Source: a virus (taxonomy: Duplodnaviria; Heunggongvirae; Uroviricota; Caudoviricetes). Taken from it: a DNA stretch of 25,126 nt. The position numbers were made by a program, and so were the translations under genes. Location of the stretch: IMG/VR virus record IMGVR_UViG_2740892271_000003; one strand, given 5' to 3'. Positions 840 to 25,126 of this stretch are shown piece by piece. The notes under the pieces were generated by a model that saw only the letters and a program-made list of their open reading frames with translations, did not search any database and was not told the DNA's origin. The first letter of the stretch is position 1, and every line of letters starts with the position of its first letter.

Positions 840-1387
840 TTACCCTATAGGTGCTACTGGCCATTCAATATCCGGTGCAGTTGATGTATCAACACGGTTC
901 AGCAACACCCGATACTTTTTCCAAGCTTCCAGCAACAAGGTTTCTTTCTCCGTTGCGATCTCCAGATCCACAGCATCCTGAAGCGGCGCTATATGCTCAC
1001 TGGCTACCTGCATCAGGCTGTTTTTTGTTTCTTCCGCCTCCCGGATCCGGAACAGTTTTTCTGCTTCCGTATCCTTCACCCAGGCTGTGCCGTTCCACTT
1101 CTGAAACTCCCCTTCCGGGGATAACCAGGTGACATTTTCCGGTAATGAGCCGAGTTCAGAAATAAATAACGCGTCGCCGGAAGCCACGTCATAAACCGTT
1201 TTACCCCGATGATCTTCAACGAGATGCCACGATGACTCATCACTGTTGAAAACAGCCACGAAACCAGCCGGAATATCTGGCGGTGCAATATCGGTACTGT
1301 TTGCAGGCAGACCTGTATGAGGCGGAATATATGCGTCACCTTCACCAATAAATTCATTAGTTCCGGCCAGCAGGTTATAAATTTTTA
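840..1387 (-). CDS. tfa: Tail fibre assembly protein Tfa, 5' end lost in the assembly gap
   Basis: Translation after the X-run ([67 protein letters not shown]...) matches lambda Tfa from about residue 13 onward. Stop codon at 840..842. Confidence 0.9.
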
Positions 1388-1517
1388 NNNNNNNNNNNNN
1401 NNNNNNNNNNNNNNNNNNNNNNNNNNNNNNNNNNNNNNNNNNNNNNNNNNNNNNNNNNNNNNNNNNNNNNNNNNNNNNNNNNNNNNNNNNNNNNNNNNNN
1501 NNNNNNNNNNNNNNNNN
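1388..1517. other. Assembly gap (130 N) covering the stf 3' end and the tfa 5' end
   Basis: A run of n characters in the sequence; it appears as X residues in the ORF track. Confidence 0.99.
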
Positions 1518-4376
1518 GCCACTGGTTAATGAGCCACTGATACCAACCTGATTAGTCCCGCTAACTTGAGTACTCCCTGCCGGAAACATTCCAGTAGGTT
1601 GACTCCCGCTATTCGTTCTGGGCCCAGTCTGACTATGTTGGTGGGCCCCAGCTGAACTTGTAGAGCCGCTCAGACTGTGCGTATGCGCCCCGGTGTTATT
1701 CGTGGATTTAGTGCCGTAATCAAACGACGATGTGGTTTTCGTCCCCAAATCCGTACTGGATGCGCTGGCGCTGTGGGTGTGCGATTTAATGCCATCCTGT
1801 TCCTGAGACAATACGGCACGACCACTGGCGGGCTTGCCCTTAATCGTCCAGCCACGCATATCAGGGATCACGCCTGACGGATAAGCGGCTGCAAGTTTCG
1901 GGTAAGCAGATTTGTCAAAAGTCTGCCCCTGCATCAGGGCATAACCAGACGGAACGGTATCTGATGGCCACGGGATTGGTGCACCGACTGGATAAAACTC
2001 TGCAGGAGGATGAGCCGAGGTGTAAAGCTGCGCCCACGGCGACCAGTTTGCGTCGGTCGTATCCCGTCGTGAACGAATAAATGCCGGAGCATGAGCACCG
2101 CTTGTACCACTCCAGCCGATGAGTAACTCACCTTCGCCAACGGCTGTCATCCCTTTCAGGTGAATGATATTTCCATACGCTGTTGGATATCCGTTGTTAT
2201 ACACCTCGTATAACTCAAGACCTGCTGCCCCCTGCGTATTGTCTGTCAGCGCGGCTACCCGACCTTTTGAAGCCAGATTAACTGATGATACTGCTGTTCC
2301 ACCTGACGGTAGCGCCCCGATCTCTGATGCCGTTGGCTTATTTCTGGAGTTATAGTCCCTTCGCCAGCCAGGTGAATAATCTGTTCCGTGATTAATATAG
2401 GTAAACTGGGCGTTGGTTGTTCCGCCACCGCTGGATGTGGTCGGAGTGGTAATGCGGATCGTCATCGCTGACTTTATCCCCATTACTTCAATGACAGCTC
2501 CGGCGAGATGAATATTACCGCAGCCAGTATCAGTAATGATTTTATTATTGCCATAAGACCAGGAACCCTTGCACATCCAGTATGGATGGTTAAATGCTCC
2601 CTGAGAATCCAGCCACTCGATAAACTGTGCAGTCGTCCAGTTTCCTGTTGTTGTGCTTACTGACCCACCGAAGGCACGGCAGGCACCAATATTTTTCGTA
2701 AAGGTGTCTTTGCCAGGGATATCCGCACCGTTCTGATCTTTCTGCAGACGTTTCTCAGCATTGTCATTGGCTGCTTTTACTGCCTTTGGCGTTGCCGCCA
2801 GCGTTTCAGACGTGCTGTTGGTCGCGCTGCTTAGCTGGATTATCCCTTTCTGTGCTGTCGTTGCATCCTGTGCGGTGTATTTCCCGTTAGCCAGGTCATA
2901 CGCGGCCTTAACGGCTTTTGGTGTTGCCGCCAGTGACTCGGAAGTGCTGTTAGTCGCACTACTGAGCTGTACTATCCCCTTTTTCGTCGTGCTCGCATCC
3001 TCAAGCGCCACGGCGGATGCAATATCCTCTGCCCGTTTTGCCGCTGTCTCAGCGCGCGTTGCTGCAGATTCCGCCGTACTTTTGCTCTGAGCTGCTGCCG
3101 TCGCACTACCAGCAGCCTCTGTCGCCTTCGTGGATGCCGTCGTGGCGCTGCCCTTCGCTGCTGACGCCTGTCTGGTCGCCTCATCTTTTGAAGCAGACGC
3201 CGATGATGCCGATGACGCCGCCGAACTGGCGGACGATGCGGCAGCCGTTTTTGAGGATTCTGCACGGGTTTCCGACGCTTTCGCGTTCGTTTCGGATGTC
3301 TTCGCTGCGGAAGCTGACCTCGCTGCTGCCGTGGCCTGCTCAGTGGCTTCGCCAGCCTTCGTTGTGGCTGTTGAAGCGGATGATGCGGCGCTTTCTGCCG
3401 ATTTTCCGGCGGCGGTGGCACTGGCTGAGGCCTGCCCGGCACTTGTTGACGCGGCGCTGGCAGACGACGCAGCCGCTGTTTTTGAGCCTGCCGCAGCTGA
3501 GGCACTCTGTCCCGCTGCCGTTTCAGAAGACCTGGCGTTCGTCTCGGACGTTTTGGCCGCCTTCGCAGAATTTGCAGCCGCCGTCGCCGAGGAAGCTGCG
3601 CTACTGGCGCTTGATGATGCGTTCGTTTCTGATGATTTTGCCGCCTCTTTTGAAGCCGACGCATCCCGGGCTGAGGTGGCAGCTTCTGACGCTTTCGTGG
3701 TCGCGGTGGATGCAGAAGTGGCTGCTGATTGTTGTGACGCTGCCGCATTCGTTTCTAACGTTTTCGCCGCACCGGCACTGGTAGCCGCCGCGCTTTTTGA
3801 GGACTCTGCAGCGGCAGCACTTTTTGAGGCTTCAGTGGCCTTTGTTGATGCCGTTCCTGCGCTGGAAGACGCTGACTGAGCCGACGAAGCGGCCTGTCCG
3901 GCTGACGTGCTGGCTGCACGTGCTGAATCTGCAGCATCAGTCGCATGGGTTGCCGCCTCACGGGCTGATGTGCTGGCATCGCTGGCTGATTTCTTCGCGG
4001 CTGCCGTGTTCTGTGCCACCGCGGACGCGTTACGCGCCACCTCTTCCACCATCAGCTCAAAACGGCGCAGTGCCTCCGGACGGGCATCATCCTCCGTCAT
4101 GGCACCGAGAAAATCATTCAGCGTACCGGGTCGGGAATCTTCATACACGGTGATGGTCCCGGCATGTGACGGCGGGAATCCTTCCACCAACAGAATAACG
4201 CTGTACTGACCGTACTCAACGTCCATGCTGTAACGCCCGGCTTCATCCGGATTTTCTGAGGCCAGCGTGTTCACCACCACCGTGGTGCTGTTACGTTTTG
4301 CTTTCAGCTGGATTGTGCAGTTCTGTACCGGTTTTCCTGTGCCGTCTTTCAGTACACCTGAAATCTTTACTGCCAT
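1518..4376 (-). CDS. stf: Side tail fibre protein Stf, long form; C-terminus lost in the gap
   Basis: The N-terminus [26 protein letters not shown]... matches lambda Stf. An Ala/Ser-rich low-complexity shaft, the [24 protein letters not shown] motif (two copies) and a His-rich HTHS/HQHS tip region are present. The ATG at 4374..4376 is preferred over the track's GTG at 4382 because it gives the lambda-like start. Confidence 0.9.
2776..2986 (-). repeat. Tandem duplication (two ~80-bp units about 130 bp apart) encoding the conserved tail-fibre motif KGI(V/I)[11 protein letters not shown](S/T)[11 protein letters not shown]
   Basis: Near-identical nucleotide stretches around 2776..2855 and 2907..2986 (ttttggcgttgccgccag...gctgtt.gtcgc.ct.ct.agctg.a.tatcccctt), and the protein motif is repeated in the Stf translation. 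Confidence 0.5.
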
Positions 4377-4383
4377 ATTCACC

Positions 4384-4440: not shown

Positions 4441-4896
4441 TCAGAATTTATAACCGACACCCACGATGAAACCGTCAGTGCGCCAGAGACGTGTTGCTGT
4501 GGCGACCGTCATCACTTCCGGTCAGCACATCGTGCGTTTTCCCCTTATTGTCAGTTACGCGGATATAATCCCCGGAAAAAGTCGACACACGGCTGTAAGC
4601 CACACCCGCCATCGCATACGCGCTGAACCATTCATTCACGCGCACAGGCTGTAACGGGTCAGCTGGCGATTCTTGTCTCCTGCATAGCTGAATGACGTCA
4701 CCAGCCCCAGCGTATCCGTAAACTCATAACGGTATTTCACGTTAATCCCGTTCAGATCATCACTGCCGGGAACGTTGGTCCGGGCATGAAGATACCCCGC
4801 GCTCAGCGTGGACTGATGTTCAGACGCCCATGCAGGCGCACCGGATACGGCCAGGCAAATGGCTGCGGACAAAATGGCTGCACAAACTTTACGCAT
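4441..4896 (-). pseudogene. lom: lom (Ail/Lom-family outer membrane protein) remnant, disrupted by two internal deletions with frameshifts
   Basis: The N-terminal 84 codons (4646..4896, MRKVCAAILSAAICLAVSGAPAWASEHQSTLSAGYLH...NRQLTRYS) hit a stop at 4636. A second frame then encodes PVRVNEWFSAYAMAGVAYSRVSTFSGDYIRVTDNKGKTHDVLTGSDDGRHSNTSLA, and a third frame encodes the family's C-terminal strand WRTDGFIVGVGYKF ending at 4441. The total is about 456 bp, against about 621 bp expected for an intact lambda lom. Confidence 0.7.
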
Positions 4897-4966: not shown

Positions 4967-7900
4967 TCAACGAATACTGATGCCGGAAGCCGCTTTTTTG
5001 GTCACAATCACCGTACAGTCGGTGATATTGCCTGCCCCCTGATTGCCTTTCTGGAAAATCTTAAACTCCAGAGTGACGCTACCACCACCACTAGGCATAT
5101 CAATAACTGCACTGTAACTACCGGGAATGGCCCCTTTAGTTTCTCTGGATGCGATTAATACGCCGTTTTTGCGAACTTCAAAACCATAACCCGTGTATCG
5201 CGTGCCTCCTGGGTTATTTCCGCTCCCCGGATCGTCATACGCTATACCGTTAAAAATAATGGGCGGAATAATAATCTGGCGGTCAAAGTTATGATCATCG
5301 CTTATGGTGACTGTAACCGTCCCGTTTGGTGTTTCCGTGTTACCCCACGTACCAGCCTGTTTCGGAAATGATTTGGATACAGCTTTAACGAAGTCACCTC
5401 TGACCTGAGTCGCCTCCAGCATGCCCTTAATCGTACAGTTTTCATTTACCGTGACATTGTTGAGCGTCCCGGCGTTCGCATTCACACTGCCACTGATATC
5501 CGCATTTTTAGCGGTCAGCTTTCCGTCCGGAGTCAGGGAAAATGCCGATGGATTTCCACCGCTGGTAATGGTGGGGGCCGTCAGGCGTTTCAGGAACACG
5601 TCGTTCATGAATATCTGATCGCCCTGACCAACAAACATCGGTTTTGTGTTGCCATTCGCAGGATTAACCATCGCAATCCTGTCCGCCGCCAGCAGCACCT
5701 GACTCTGCATGCCGTCAGGGGTGTTCTCAATACCGGCACCAATACCCGCGATATAAAGGCGTCCGTCCTGCATCTGCTGCAGCTTCACAGCCCACATGCT
5801 GTTCAGGTTATTATTTGTATCAACCTGAACCTTCTGTATCTGCTGAATTGCCGCACTCTGGTCTTCCAGTTTCTTATTGACGGTCTGCGTGATTTCATTG
5901 CTGACATCCGTAATGGACGTCCTGATTTCAGCCAGGTCAGGCGCAAGCTGACCGTTATCAATCTGCGTCCACAGCTCCTGAGCCAGATGGGTTTTCCCTA
6001 TCTCGCCTTTGAAAAAATCCAGATAACCGGATGCATCATCACTCGGCTGACCAACAGCCTCCACGAATGCCGATTTGCCAACGGTGTTCACACTGCGGAT
6101 ATAAAAGTAATAATCATGGCCCGGTTTGATATTGATACTGGCGGCTATCCAGTACAGCGCCGTGCCAAGATAGCGTGCTGTGGTTTCAACCTGCCTGATA
6201 TCCGCAATCCGCTTTTCCGAGAACCAGAACTCAAACTGTACCGTCGGATCATAAACCGCAAGATGCGGCGTGGCGGTTATCTGAAAATAGCCCGGCGTCA
6301 GCTCAATCCGCGACAGCGCTGCCGGTGCGGCAATCCGGAACGATACCGACGCCGGATCGCCCTGCTGCCCCCACGCATTTACTGCCCGGACTGTCAGCCT
6401 GTAGTTCCCCAGCGCCAGTTGTGTGAAGCGGTAAGTGGTTTCCGTCGTCCGGGCCGTGCTGACCAGCCGCTCACTGCCGTCATCCGCTGTTACGGTCAGA
6501 CGGAGCAGGAAGCTCACGCCCTTCACCACCTTCGGCGTGTCCCAGCGCGCCAGCACCTGATATTCCCCGCTGTCTGCGGTGACTTCGGCAGTCAGGTGCT
6601 GCACCGCTGGCGGCGTGACACCATTCACCGTGCCGCTCTGGTCGCCGTCAAAGTGCGCCCCGTTATCCACGATGGCTTCTTTTTCCGGCACATGCTGCAC
6701 GGCGGTGATGGCATACGTGCCGTCGTCGTTCTCACGGATACTCACGCAGCGGAACAATCGCTGGTGCAGCGTCGGCAGCTTCAGCCCCCACACGCTGTAT
6801 TCAGCAACACCGTCAGGAACACGGCTCACTTTTACCTTCACGCCGTCGGTGACGGACTGGACCTCCACGCTGACCGGATTCCCCTGCCCGTCAACCAGGC
6901 TTATCAGCGTGGTGCCGGAGGATGGCAGCGTGATTTCACGGTCGAGCGTCAGCGTCCGGGTCTGGCTGTTCACCGCCAGCACGCGCCCGCCGGTGCGGAT
7001 ACCGGCATAGTCATCATCGCAGATTTCAATGACATCGCCCGGTACATGACGAAGCCCTTCAGCACCCACGCTGAAATCCACGGTCTGCGTCTCCAGCAGT
7101 TCCGTTTTAATCAGCCACAGCCCGGCGCGGTGTGCCTGCCCCCGGCTGGTACAGCCAAAGGCATCCATCTTCGTGACGTTACGACCGTAACGGACAATGG
7201 CCTGCGTATCCTCCACAAGCTCTGTCGCCGTCTCCCAGCCGTTATCCGGGTCAATCCAGTTCACCTCAACGGCATTATGGCGGTCTTTCAGGGCGCTGAA
7301 ACTGTAGCGGAACGGCGCGCCATCATCCGGCATCACCACATTACTGCGGTTATAGGCCCACACCTTATCCGACTGTCGGTCCTGCACGAACGTCAGCGTC
7401 TGCCCGTTCCATACCGGCATACAGCGCATCGCCGAGCAGAAATCACTGAGCACATCCCACGCCTTGCGCTGTGTGGTCAGCCAGGCATTACAGGTGATGC
7501 GCGGCTCCGTGCTGCCAAAGCCGTCCGGCACCGACTGGTCACAGTACTGGCCGATGACATACAGCGCCCATTTATCCACATCTGCCGCACCAAGACGTTT
7601 CCCCATGCCATAGCGCGGATGGGTCAGCATATCCCACAGACACCAGGCCATGTTGTTGCTGTATGCCGGTTTTAACGTTCCGTCCCAGATACCGCTGTAT
7701 TGCCGCGTCTGCGGATTATAGTTCGACGGCACCTGCAGAATGCGCCCGCGAAGATGATAATTACGGCTCACCTGCTGGCTGCCGAACTGCTCCGAATCCA
7801 CCTGTACGCCGACCAGTGCCGTGTTCGGGTAGCACTGTTTCACATCGATGATTTCGGTGTATGACGACCAGAGCGTTTTGTTCTGCAGCTGGTCTGTGGT

Positions 7901-23233: not shown

Positions 23234-23259
<26 letters not shown>

Positions 23260-23779
23260 TCAGCAACCCCGGTATCAGTTCATCCAGCGCGGCTGCTTTG
23301 TTCATGGCTTTGATGATATCCCGTTTCAGGAAATCAACATGTCGGTTTTCCAGTTCCGGAAAACGCCGCTGCACCGACAGGGGGATCCCGTCGAGAATAC
23401 TGGCAATTTCACCTGCGATCCGCGACAGCACGAAAGTACAGAATGCGGTTTCCACCACTTCAGCGGAGTCTCTGGCATTTTTCAGCTCCTGTGCGTCGGC
23501 CTGCGCACGCGTAAGTCGATGGCGTTCGTACTCAATAGTCCCTGGCTGGAGATCTGTCTCGCTGGCCTGCCGCAGTTCTTCAACTTCCCGGCGCAGCTTT
23601 TCGTTCTCAATTTCAGCATCCCTTTCGGCATACCATCTTATAACGGCGGCAGAGTCATAAAGCACCTCATTACCCTTGCCACCGCCTCGCAGAACGGGCA
23701 TTCCCTGTTCCTGCCAGTTCTGAATGGTACGGATACTCGCACCGAAAATGTCAGCCAGCTGCTTTTTGTTGACTTCCAT
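23234..23779 (-). CDS. Nu1: Terminase small subunit Nu1
   Basis: 181 aa (MEVNKKQLADIFGASIRTIQNWQEQGMPVLRGGGKGNEV...), matching lambda gpNu1. Confidence 0.95.
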
Positions 23780-23789
23780 TGTTCATTCC

Positions 23790-24090
23790 ACGGACAAAAA
23801 CAGAGAAAGGAAACGACAGAGGCCAAAAAGCCCGTTTTCAGCACCTGTCGTTTCCTTTCTTTTCAGGGGGTGTTTTAAATAAAAACATTAGGTTACGGCG
23901 AAGAAGAACGGAAACGCCTTAAACCGGAAAATTGTCATAAATAGCGAAAACCCGCGCGCCTTCCGCCCCGTAACCTGTCGGATCGCCGGAAAGGACCCGC
24001 AAAATGATAATAATTATCATCTACATGTCACAACGTGCATCTACGCCATCAAACCACGTCAAATAATCAATTATGACGCAGGTATCGTAT
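23790..24090 (-). other. cos packaging region (cosB with the R1-R3 Nu1-binding repeats, cosN, and the cosQ-side sequence)
   Basis: The reverse complement reads ...gatgataattattatcattttgcgggtcctttccggcgatccgacaggttacg | gggcggaaggcg | cgcgggttttcgctatttatgacaattttccggtttaaggcgtttccg...ggaaacgacagg...ctgtcgtttcc. This is collinear with the lambda right-end/left-end junction and the aaacgacag R-site repeats as I remember them. Confidence 0.8.
23957..23968 (-). other. cosN 12-nt cohesive-end core, variant relative to lambda
   Basis: Flanked by the conserved ...caggttacg and cgcgggttttcgc... sequences. The minus strand reads GGGCGGAAGGCG, where lambda has GGGCGGCGACCT from memory. Confidence 0.6.
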
Positions 24091-24167
24091 TAATTGATCT
24101 GCATCAACTTAACGTAAAAACAACTTCAGACAATACAAATCAGCGACACTGAATACAGGGCAACCTC

Positions 24168-24401
24168 ATGTCAACGAAGAACAGAACCCGCAGAACAACA
24201 ACCCGCAACATCCGCTTTCCTAACCAAATGATTGAACAAATTAACATCGCTCTTGTTCAAAAAGGGTCCGGGAATTTCTCAGCCTGGGTCATTGAAGCCT
24301 GCCGCCGGAGACTGTGCTCAGAAAAAAGAGTTTCGCCTGAAGCAAACAAAGAAAAGAGTGACATTACTGAATTGCTCAGAAAACAGGTTAGACCAGATTG
24401 A
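24168..24401 (+). CDS. Small ribbon-helix-helix-like DNA-binding protein (77 aa), hypothetical
   Basis: MSTKNRTRRTTTRNIRFPNQMIEQINIALVQKGSGNFSAWVIEACRRRL... has a basic N-terminal arm, then a beta-strand-like RNIRFP, helix, G-x-(S/N) turn and second helix, as in Arc/MetJ/CopG-type folds. AT-rich codon usage; the Shine-Dalgarno sequence is weak. Confidence 0.45.
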   Translation: MSTKNRTRRTTTRNIRFPNQMIEQINIALVQKGSGNFSAWVIEACRRRLCSEKRVSPEANKEKSDITELLRKQVRPD

Positions 24402-24458
24402 AGCAATTTAGATAATCGTGCAGACTACGCCCCCTCATATCACATGGAAGGTACTACA

Positions 24459-24869
24459 ATGGCTCAGGTTGCCATTTTTAAACAAATATTCGATAAAGTG
24501 CGAAATAATTTAAACTATCACTGGTTTTATTCTGAACTAAAACGTCACAATGTCTCACATTACATTTACTATTTAGCCACAGAGAATATTCATCTTGTTC
24601 TTGAAAACGATAATACGGTTTTAATAAAAGGACAGGGTAAGGTTGTAAATGTAAGATTTTCAAAAAATAAATGCCTTATAGAAGCCACCTTAAAAGGATT
24701 CAAATCAGGAGAGTTATCATTTTACGAATACAGGAAAAATCTTGCTACAGCAGGGGTTTTCAGATGGATTACAAATATCCACGAAAACAAAAGGTATTAC
24801 TATACCTTTGATAATTCATTACTCTTTACTGAGAACATACAGAACACTACACAAATATTTCCGCACTAA
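24459..24869 (+). CDS. Hypothetical 136-aa protein (possibly YbcV/DUF1398-like lambdoid accessory protein); the track's alternative start at 24444 gives 141 aa
   Basis: Frame verified across rows 24444..24869. A GGAAGG Shine-Dalgarno sequence lies 7 nt upstream of the ATG at 24459. AT-rich, on the strand opposite the packaging genes. The family assignment is from memory only. Confidence 0.6.
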
Positions 24870-24914
24870 ATCATAACGTCCGGTTTCTTCCGTGCCAGAA
24901 CCGGACTCGCTGGC

Positions 24915-25124
24915 ATGATGAAATATGTGTACCCGGTAACCCCGGTGTGCATCGTTTTTGATTATTCCCGCACACTCGCGCAGAAGGAGTTCCCCGTCGG
25001 GCTACGGTCTCTGTTAATACGGGAATACGGCGACGATTGGATTTGCCCCTATATTTCCAGACATCTGTTATCACTTAACCCATTACAAGCCCGCTGCCGC
25101 AGATATTCCCGTGGCGAGCGATAA
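24915..25124 (+). CDS. Doubtful 69-aa ORF (MMKYVYPVTPVCIVFDYSRTLAQKEFPVGL...)
   Basis: Open frame with ATG and TAA at 25122..25124. No good ribosome-binding site and no recognisable family; it may be non-coding phage backbone. Confidence 0.15.
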   Translation: MMKYVYPVTPVCIVFDYSRTLAQKEFPVGLRSLLIREYGDDWICPYISRHLLSLNPLQARCRRYSRGER

Positions 25125-25126
25125 CC

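Follow-up and report, generated by a model that had tools for sequence, protein, structure and literature searches.

A ynfO-ydfO accessory region beside cos of a lambda-like prophage: probably two independently inherited units rather than a coupled module

Immediately to the right of the cos region of a lambda-like prophage (IMG/VR record IMGVR_UViG_2740892271_000003, whose whole analysed stretch of 25,126 nucleotides is called the window below), a short AT-rich interval carries two plus-strand open reading frames (ORFs), ORF1 (24168-24401, 77 amino acids) and ORF2 (24459-24869, 136 amino acids), which are separated by a gap of 57 bp (24402-24458) and run opposite to the packaging genes Nu1 and A. 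We consider it probable that this interval is a compact, Qin-type ynfO-ydfO accessory region consisting of two independently inherited units in a head-to-tail arrangement, and not a coupled module. The feature itself is already known and annotated, that is, it is a near-identical copy of the ynfO-ydfO region of thousands of E. coli genomes, K-12 and phage lambda, and both genes sit in the E. coli 'y-ome' as well as in lambda. The useful outcome is a negative one: the pair resembles a toxin-antitoxin (TA) or defence module, an architecture that an earlier reading of this DNA (hereafter, the original prediction) had proposed for it, yet it should not be filed as such.

Results

Profile searches placed both proteins in named families. 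ORF1 (plus strand) matched Pfam DUF3950 (PF13132) with 72.8 bits (cut-off 25) and NCBIfam YlcI_YnfO_N (NF041551) with 35.2 bits (cut-off 30), whereas ORF2 (plus strand) matched DUF1398 (PF07166) with 147.1 bits (cut-off 22; E = 3e-43) over the entire model (positions 1-119 of 119). Residues 1-135 of ORF2 also align to the nuclear magnetic resonance (NMR) structure 2HH8, 'hypothetical protein ydfO' (E = 2.9e-67), and the protein is 76% identical to lambda p78 (tblastn). ORF2 is the orthologue of YdfO (Qin), YbcV (DLP12) and lambda p78; the fallback guess of the original prediction, that it might simply belong to the YbcV/DUF1398 family, was therefore correct. In close relatives, PGAP names the products 'YlcI/YnfO family protein' and 'DUF1398 domain-containing protein'. 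Of the region's 1,347-bp stretch, 80% or more was found in 2,629 of 5,426 complete E. coli genomes, and the ORF2 DNA occurs at no less than 99% identity in 1,063 complete E. coli records.

Judging from their distribution, the two families are inherited independently of each other, in both directions. Among 50,697 phage records (tblastn), 153 carry the DUF3950 core and 43 carry DUF1398, with about 110 of the 153 having DUF3950 without DUF1398; the Shiga toxin (Stx1a-, Stx2a- and Stx2c-)converting phages all have the former without the latter. A comparison of the Rz-to-cos position, as the original prediction had suggested, revealed that the same slot is occupied with DUF1398 in some related phages and without it in others. 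For instance, in Stx2a_WGPS6 and Lys8385Vzw, DUF3950 sits in the same lysis/packaging slot, divergent from the packaging genes, and DUF1398 does not follow, with the packaging module of WGPS6 being HNH/TerS/TerL, not Nu1/A, and the Lys8385Vzw stretch containing an HNH-type gene annotated 'putative DNase'. A second DUF3950 clade, 38-47% identical, is spread through Enterobacterales, and its gene is the lone gene on its strand in all ten P4-like or PICI-like (phage-inducible chromosomal island) satellite loci that we examined in Klebsiella, Dickeya and Yersinia. The gene order of these satellites is integrase, AlpA, DUF3950 (on the other strand), small ORFs and primase, with capsid genes present in some cases, and in none of the ten loci does DUF3950 have a co-directional partner. 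In the other direction, DUF1398 occurs without DUF3950 as K-12 ycgX and as chromosomal genes of Klebsiella aerogenes and Raoultella (roughly 1,000 contigs for either), and a genome scan with the Klebsiella-type protein returned a single Flavobacterium locus (24% identical) beside a thioredoxin-like gene and clpB. DUF1398 is a small family (a threshold of E <= 0.001 gave 189 representatives out of 1.84 billion, mostly fragments), and a scan of viral contigs with ORF1 returned only copies that are 97-100% identical.

Two side observations concern the satellites. The DUF3950 gene of 63-67 amino acids (3501-3704 in locus L091; 5001-5204 in locus L092) is often unannotated or lies under a long opposite-strand ORF (e.g., 324 amino acids, 4634-5608 in L092) that has no Pfam match and is probably a spurious call. 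Further, a Dickeya satellite with DUF3950 (L097) has KwaA/KwaB (Kiwa, at 5826-7224) in the integrase-proximal slot, not in the slot of DUF3950.

The independence of the two families bears directly on whether the pair is a type II TA system, in which ORF1 would be a ribbon-helix-helix (RHH) antitoxin and autorepressor whose C-terminal tail neutralizes a DUF1398 toxin encoded by ORF2, an explanation that we regard as very unlikely. While the gene order, the sizes and the 57-bp spacing are like those of an RHH-antitoxin-first operon, each family occurs without the other, that is, the obligate linkage expected of such a pair is not observed. Moreover, some 530 bp separate the two genes in lambda and DLP12, where an opposite-strand gene (p79 or ybcW) lies between them, in a segment that the window does not have.

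Consistent with two separate units, the breakpoint between lambda-like blocks falls between the genes, at 24330/24385. The first mosaic block (23969-24330, plus strand) is 95% identical to the lambda right end and holds cosQ, the ORF1 upstream region and ORF1 codons 1-54 (by blastn comparison to L001, a lambda-type locus; over four loci, column identity is about 98%). The second block, the DUF1398 cassette (24385-25038, plus strand), holds the control block, ORF2, a hairpin and the 3' flank, and is 82.6% identical to the lambda p78 region. Between the two, 54 bp of the window replace about 610 bp of lambda, including p79. A 14-nt direct repeat (TGCTCAGAAAAAAG / TGCTCAGAAAACAG, at 24315-24328 and 24373-24386) stands at the edges of the 54-bp segment and may be a trace of the recombination that gave rise to the compact Qin-type arrangement. 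ORF1 homologues are similar only to about residue 50 (...CRRRL) and have their own tail in each lineage; in the window, the last six codons of ORF1 (KQVRPD-stop) lie in the block upstream of DUF1398, a stretch that in lambda is intergenic. As the product of a recombination joint, the ORF1 tail probably does not serve specifically for toxin binding, and it differs in every lineage whereas the DUF1398 proteins keep an identity of about 76%, a further point against the TA explanation.

ORF2 is also preceded by a control block of its own. A block of about 78 bp, from AGGT(C/T)AGACCAGATTGAA through CACATGGAAGGT to the ATG of the DUF1398 gene, is conserved in all four contexts (the window, Qin, lambda and DLP12), whatever stands further upstream. 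The block opens with a PdhR-box-like element, AACAGGTTAGACCAGAT (24382-24398, plus strand), which is the best match of the window (one mismatch), overlaps the last codons of ORF1 and is kept in the same four contexts. Overlapping this element is a promoter-like sequence, TAGACC-16-GATAAT (24389-24416, plus strand), a candidate ORF2 promoter that scored 9/12 in a sigma-70 consensus scan. The strong Shine-Dalgarno sequence that the original prediction had pointed out, GGAAGG, was recovered at 24446-24451 (plus strand), 7 nt before the ATG at 24459, and is invariant in five of five aligned loci; an alternative upstream ATG at 24444 would extend ORF2 to 141 amino acids.

The literature on the orthologues fits this organization of the ORF2 unit. 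Genomic SELEX (systematic evolution of ligands by exponential enrichment) identified orthologous K-12 sequences (ynfO>ydfO; ybcV/ybcW) as targets of PdhR, and ybcV and ybcW mRNA levels were about 10-fold lower in a pdhR mutant (PMC7660256). The mRNA of ydfO increased 12-fold (arrays) or 117-fold (quantitative PCR) with an imidazolium ionic liquid, in a growth-phase-dependent manner (PMC4077768), and ydfO expression was altered on DicC induction. Knock-down of lambda p78 by CRISPR interference gave plating efficiencies of 1.3-1.9 and was scored non-essential, and both p78 and p79 are listed as non-essential (PMC10695390). Both ynfO and ydfO of K-12 continue to be classed as uncharacterised (PMC11551758), and we found no paper on DUF3950 or DUF1398 that gives either family a function.

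Transposon-insertion data may at first appear to favor the TA explanation, in that ydfO has a low insertion frequency in a TraDIS study (transposon-directed sequencing of insertion sites) whose low-insertion list also has the true antitoxin genes relB, higA and hipB (PMC5821084). However, ynfO is not on that list, that is, the insertion-poor gene is the supposed toxin, the opposite of what is predicted with ORF1 as the antitoxin. We suspect that the low insertion in ydfO results from a nucleoid protein occluding the AT-rich DNA. Neither protein matches PADLOC, and YdfO was made alone for the 2HH8 structure, which suggests that it is not strongly toxic. Taken together, independent inheritance, a breakpoint between the genes, a separate control block for ORF2 and no PADLOC match speak against the coupled DNA-binder and effector (TA or abortive infection) that the original prediction had in mind.

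With respect to the individual proteins, ORF1 has a conserved core (residues 1-50) and a lineage-specific tail (51-77). Across both DUF3950 clades (28 sequences), residues R16, F17, P18, N36, F37, S38, W40 and C45 are invariant, and the core motif I-R-F-P ... N-F-S-x-W ... C is present in ORF1 and common with distant members. The AlphaFold2 model (mean predicted local distance difference test score, pLDDT, of 68 overall and 86-89 in helices) has helices at 19-32 and 37-53 and a basic, extended N-terminus; its disordered C-terminal tail is a feature in which ORF1 does look like an antitoxin. An RHH-like fold is thereby supported but unproven, and ORF1 is likely an RHH DNA-binding protein according to the model. 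Upstream of ORF1 there is an imperfect inverted repeat, ATCAATTATGACG / CGTATTAATTGAT (24066-24098), whose two arms of 13 nt are separated by 7 nt and which we propose as a candidate operator for the ORF1 protein; the DNA in which it lies does not vary between loci of the lambda type and the Qin type.

For ORF2, what distant DUF1398 members conserve are aromatic residues, glycines and structural positions (L27, Y35, T41, N43, G84, Y114), and no catalytic-looking residue set was seen among them; nor did reading the sequence by eye reveal a signal peptide or a hydrophobic, membrane segment. The N-terminal half of the family aligns weakly to the C-terminal half in a sensible register (P = 0.012), which hints at a tandem duplication. 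The AlphaFold2 model, built from a 16-sequence alignment, is poor (pLDDT 47). We infer that ORF2 acts in the cytoplasm as a small binding protein and in this way modulates host physiology, which is the weakest step of our explanation.

Two other roles for ORF2 were weighed against these data. The first, that ORF2 is a virion or envelope component, stems from inherited labels: PHROG 413 is labelled 'head protein' and several phage records read 'head protein' or 'putative envelope protein'. We find this hardly credible, given that ORF2 is transcribed opposite to the late operon, is non-essential in lambda (PMC10695390), is missing from most phages sharing the head genes, has homologues at non-phage chromosomal loci and showed no signal peptide or hydrophobic segment when read by eye. 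These labels are very probably wrong. The second, that ORF2 is an abortive-infection or superinfection-exclusion effector of the prophage, with or without ORF1 as its regulator, has more to recommend it and yet seems unlikely to us. The genes do occupy a variable accessory slot of temperate phages, are AT-rich and antisense to lytic genes, and DUF3950-bearing satellites hold defence genes such as KwaA/KwaB, though in another slot. Further, one phage-resistant isolate of avian pathogenic E. coli (APEC) had lost ydfO, so that, if anything, it was the loss that went with resistance. However, PADLOC-DB v2 returned nothing for ORF1 and only Csx23 for ORF2 (E = 0.023, 12.7 bits), we found no paper linking DUF1398 or DUF3950 to defence (the terms appear only in gene lists), and DUF1398 shows no conserved catalytic residues and is also a stand-alone chromosomal gene in Klebsiella aerogenes, Raoultella and Flavobacterium.

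The composition of the interval and its right-hand edge were as follows. The AT-rich two-gene island beside cos, opposite to the packaging genes, was confirmed as originally described, including the 57-bp gap and the drop in GC (guanine plus cytosine) fraction: this fraction is 0.379 from cosQ to ORF1, 0.444 in ORF1, 0.314 in ORF2 and 0.535 at 24870-25039, and the island interval (0.38) lies about 3.4 standard deviations below the backbone mean of 0.555 (standard deviation 0.051, 811-bp windows). The island is not the sole AT-rich patch in the window, with positions around 200-800 falling to 0.29. The hairpin at 24878-24906 has an 8-bp stem (GTCCGGTT/AACCGGAC) and a 13-nt loop, folds with -15.2 kcal/mol (z = -1.97; 7 of 200 shuffles were equally good) and is kept in relatives, with one compensatory change (T-A to C-G) between the window and Qin. 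We considered it as an intrinsic terminator and rejected this assignment based on its 13-nt loop, the missing T-run and a terminator scan that did not flag it. The hairpin had also been taken to mark the right boundary of the island. This holds for composition, as GC fraction returns to 0.535 there, but homology of the ORF2 cassette with relatives continues beyond it up to 25038 (blastn), so that the hairpin is the compositional edge and not the mosaic edge.

Positions 25040-25126 (minus strand, 87 bp) are the end of an IS2 (IS3 family) insertion sequence and are 100% identical to annotated IS2-family transposase element ends on plasmids. Since homology with related prophages ends at 25037/25038, IS2 lies about 170 bp downstream of ORF2; at this position, relatives instead run on toward KilA-N and lysis genes. 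Read from the alignments, IS2 interrupts phage sequence and is no part of the island.

On the other side of the island lie the structural genes of the prophage, on the minus strand. The Nu1-type terminase small subunit (23234-23779, minus strand, 181 amino acids) matched Pfam Phage_Nu1 with E = 2.4e-101, and its packaging neighbor, terminase A (641 amino acids), is on the same strand; the two end at 23779. The cos region (23780-23998, no strand) was delimited by aligning it to HK630 and to two prophages of E. coli. Within it we read the 12-nt cosN core CGCCTTCCGCCC (23957-23968), with a cohesive end of GGGCGGAAGGCG, and cosQ AGGACCC (23992-23998); we take the assignment of bases to cosN and cosQ to be as in lambda. 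The cosN core differs from that of lambda at 5 of 12 positions (GGGCGGAAGGCG instead of GGGCGGCGACCT) between flanks that are about 98% identical. The same variant occurs in the prophage of E. coli strain 582 and the lambda type in strain LR-71-1 and HK630; the cohesive ends of the two types should be incompatible. Just right of cosQ, there is a perfect 7-1-7 palindrome, TGATAATAATTATCA (24005-24019), for which no shuffle of the window gave a match, even allowing one mismatch, and which is kept in lambda and HK630 as TGATAATGATTATCA (alignment); it equals the 7-1-7 consensus of the Fur box, TGATAATnATTATCA. The palindrome overlaps the best promoter-like site of the region, GTGACA-16-TATCAT (10/12), on the minus strand (24031-24004) and directed toward cos and Nu1.

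At the left end of the window, 130 N (masked or unresolved bases, at 1388-1517) lower the apparent GC fraction within a tail-fibre-like, minus-strand ORF of 1,180 amino acids (840-4382). The lom gene downstream of J appears truncated, in that a minus-strand ORF of 86 amino acids (4636-4896) aligns to no more than positions 1-83 of the Ail/Lom model (E = 2.9e-44), which has 199 positions. The second AT-rich stretch (about 200-800; GC fraction 0.29-0.30), downstream of the tail-fibre genes, has no complete ORF of 60 amino acids or more and may be another accessory or attachment-proximal region.

Discussion

We favor the explanation that the interval holds two units with separate histories and, as proposed here, separate roles. 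ORF1 would encode a small basic protein with a core of about 50 residues and an RHH-like fold, most likely a dimeric DNA-binding regulator, whose gene is a solitary fixture of enterobacterial mobile elements that always runs against the direction of the surrounding lytic operon. ORF1 would be made in the repressed (lysogenic) state, controlling its own promoter and possibly transcription across the junction. ORF2, in turn, would be an optional moron cassette, in which an ORF of very high AT content stands between a 5' block of its own (the PdhR-box-like element, the -10-like GATAAT and the strong Shine-Dalgarno sequence) and a hairpin on the 3' side, and is probably dispensable for lytic growth. 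Transcripts of the K-12 orthologues depend on the host regulator PdhR and respond to stress. The ORF2 product, predicted to be small and soluble, might bind a host component and thereby adjust host physiology, rather than act as a toxin or virion protein. The moron-like character that the original prediction had attributed to the island agrees well with these results, i.e., the island is AT-rich, antisense to the late and packaging genes and variably present in related phages.

Alternatively, ORF1 might serve the phage itself, as a DNA-binding factor or antisense insulator at the lysis/packaging junction or cos (for example, blocking read-through into the packaging genes in the lysogen), with ORF2 being unrelated cargo. 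In support of this alternative, DUF3950 holds the same slot beside two different packaging modules, is always a single gene antisense to the replication/packaging operon in satellites, and has its core in the mosaic block (95% identical) to which cosQ and Nu1/A also belong. Nonetheless, the satellite gene adjoins the primase operon and not cos or terminase genes, and the right end of lambda, from Rz to cosQ, is considered non-essential. We therefore consider this alternative doubtful; it also overlaps our favored explanation, with only the proposed target being different. It is equally speculative, but intriguing, to hypothesize that DUF3950/YnfO represents an undescribed class of small RHH regulators of lambdoid phages and of P4-like and PICI-like satellites that silence or insulate a lytic operon when integrated, with DUF1398 being a separate, PdhR-controlled cargo. 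If this were true, the antisense targets would be the junction of lysis and packaging genes in phages and, in satellites, the operon running from AlpA to primase. As guides for experiments, we note that DUF3950 is a solitary antisense gene in lambdoid phages and satellites and that DUF1398 travels with the PdhR-box-like block.

Several points weigh against the favored explanation. Most generally, no experiment assigns either family a function and, therefore, the modes of action proposed for both proteins are ones that we infer. The RHH layout that the original prediction recognized in ORF1 is supported by the model but is not significant at the sequence level: the AlphaFold2 helices fit and, in hhalign, the DUF3950 profile pairs NIRFP with NLRWP of the Arc repressor in the expected RHH register (the Arc sequence was checked against 1ARQ), but this alignment is insignificant (P = 0.027; 0.0064 when the profile was made more diverse; probability <6%). 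Likewise, a Pfam scan at E <= 10 gave no RHH family for ORF1, searches of the DUF3950 profile against PDB sequences gave none or chance matches only, and Foldseek of the ORF1 model against the PDB yielded nothing useful. No plus-strand sigma-70 consensus promoter was found upstream of ORF1, the ORF2 promoter is a consensus match of 9/12 only, and PdhR-like patterns overall are not above chance frequency in the window. The terminator scan found no terminator between ORF1 and ORF2, which is compatible with read-through co-transcription in the compact arrangement. The excess of DUF3950-core over DUF1398 places in E. coli genomes (9,549 vs. 3,860), itself in line with independent inheritance, comes from counts at the DNA level that may miss divergent DUF1398 paralogues. 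Finally, the claim that YdfO overexpression provides resistance to oxidative stress (PMC4077768, citing Wang et al. 2010) relates to a paper whose main text does not mention ydfO.

Compared to known systems, the closest counterpart is the Qin prophage of K-12, in which ynfO (b4533) and ydfO (b1549) are in the same place, divergent from the Nu1 homologue nohA, with the same gene lengths (234 and 411 bp) and 57-bp spacer as in the window, a shared upstream block, and the same hairpin save for the one compensatory change. Qin is a remnant, however, whereas the window prophage keeps intact lambda-like structural genes; about one position in four differs between the two DUF1398 proteins, and IS2 has inserted in the window 170 bp downstream. 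Lambda (YlcI/YnfO-family ORF, p79, p78, bor) and DLP12 (ylcI, ybcW, ybcV, borD) also carry both families, co-directional and between the lysis genes and cos. The ORF1 core and upstream DNA of these elements are 95-98% identical to those of the window, the DUF1398 protein is about 76% identical, and the upstream control block is common to all; their ORF1 homologue, in contrast, is 64 amino acids long with another tail, and, unlike in lambda and DLP12, no bor gene is visible in the window before IS2. Similar to morons such as lambda bor and lom, ORF2 sits in the late region, is probably transcribed alone, has atypical composition, is variably present in relatives and appears unneeded for lytic growth. 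The bor and lom products are outer-membrane proteins, whereas ORF2 is predicted to be cytoplasmic, and lysogen expression of its orthologues is documented only in K-12 cryptic prophages. Lastly, compared to RHH (Arc/MetJ/CopG) proteins, including antitoxins, ORF1 differs in that neither sequence nor profile searches matched it significantly to an RHH family and in being without a conserved toxin partner.

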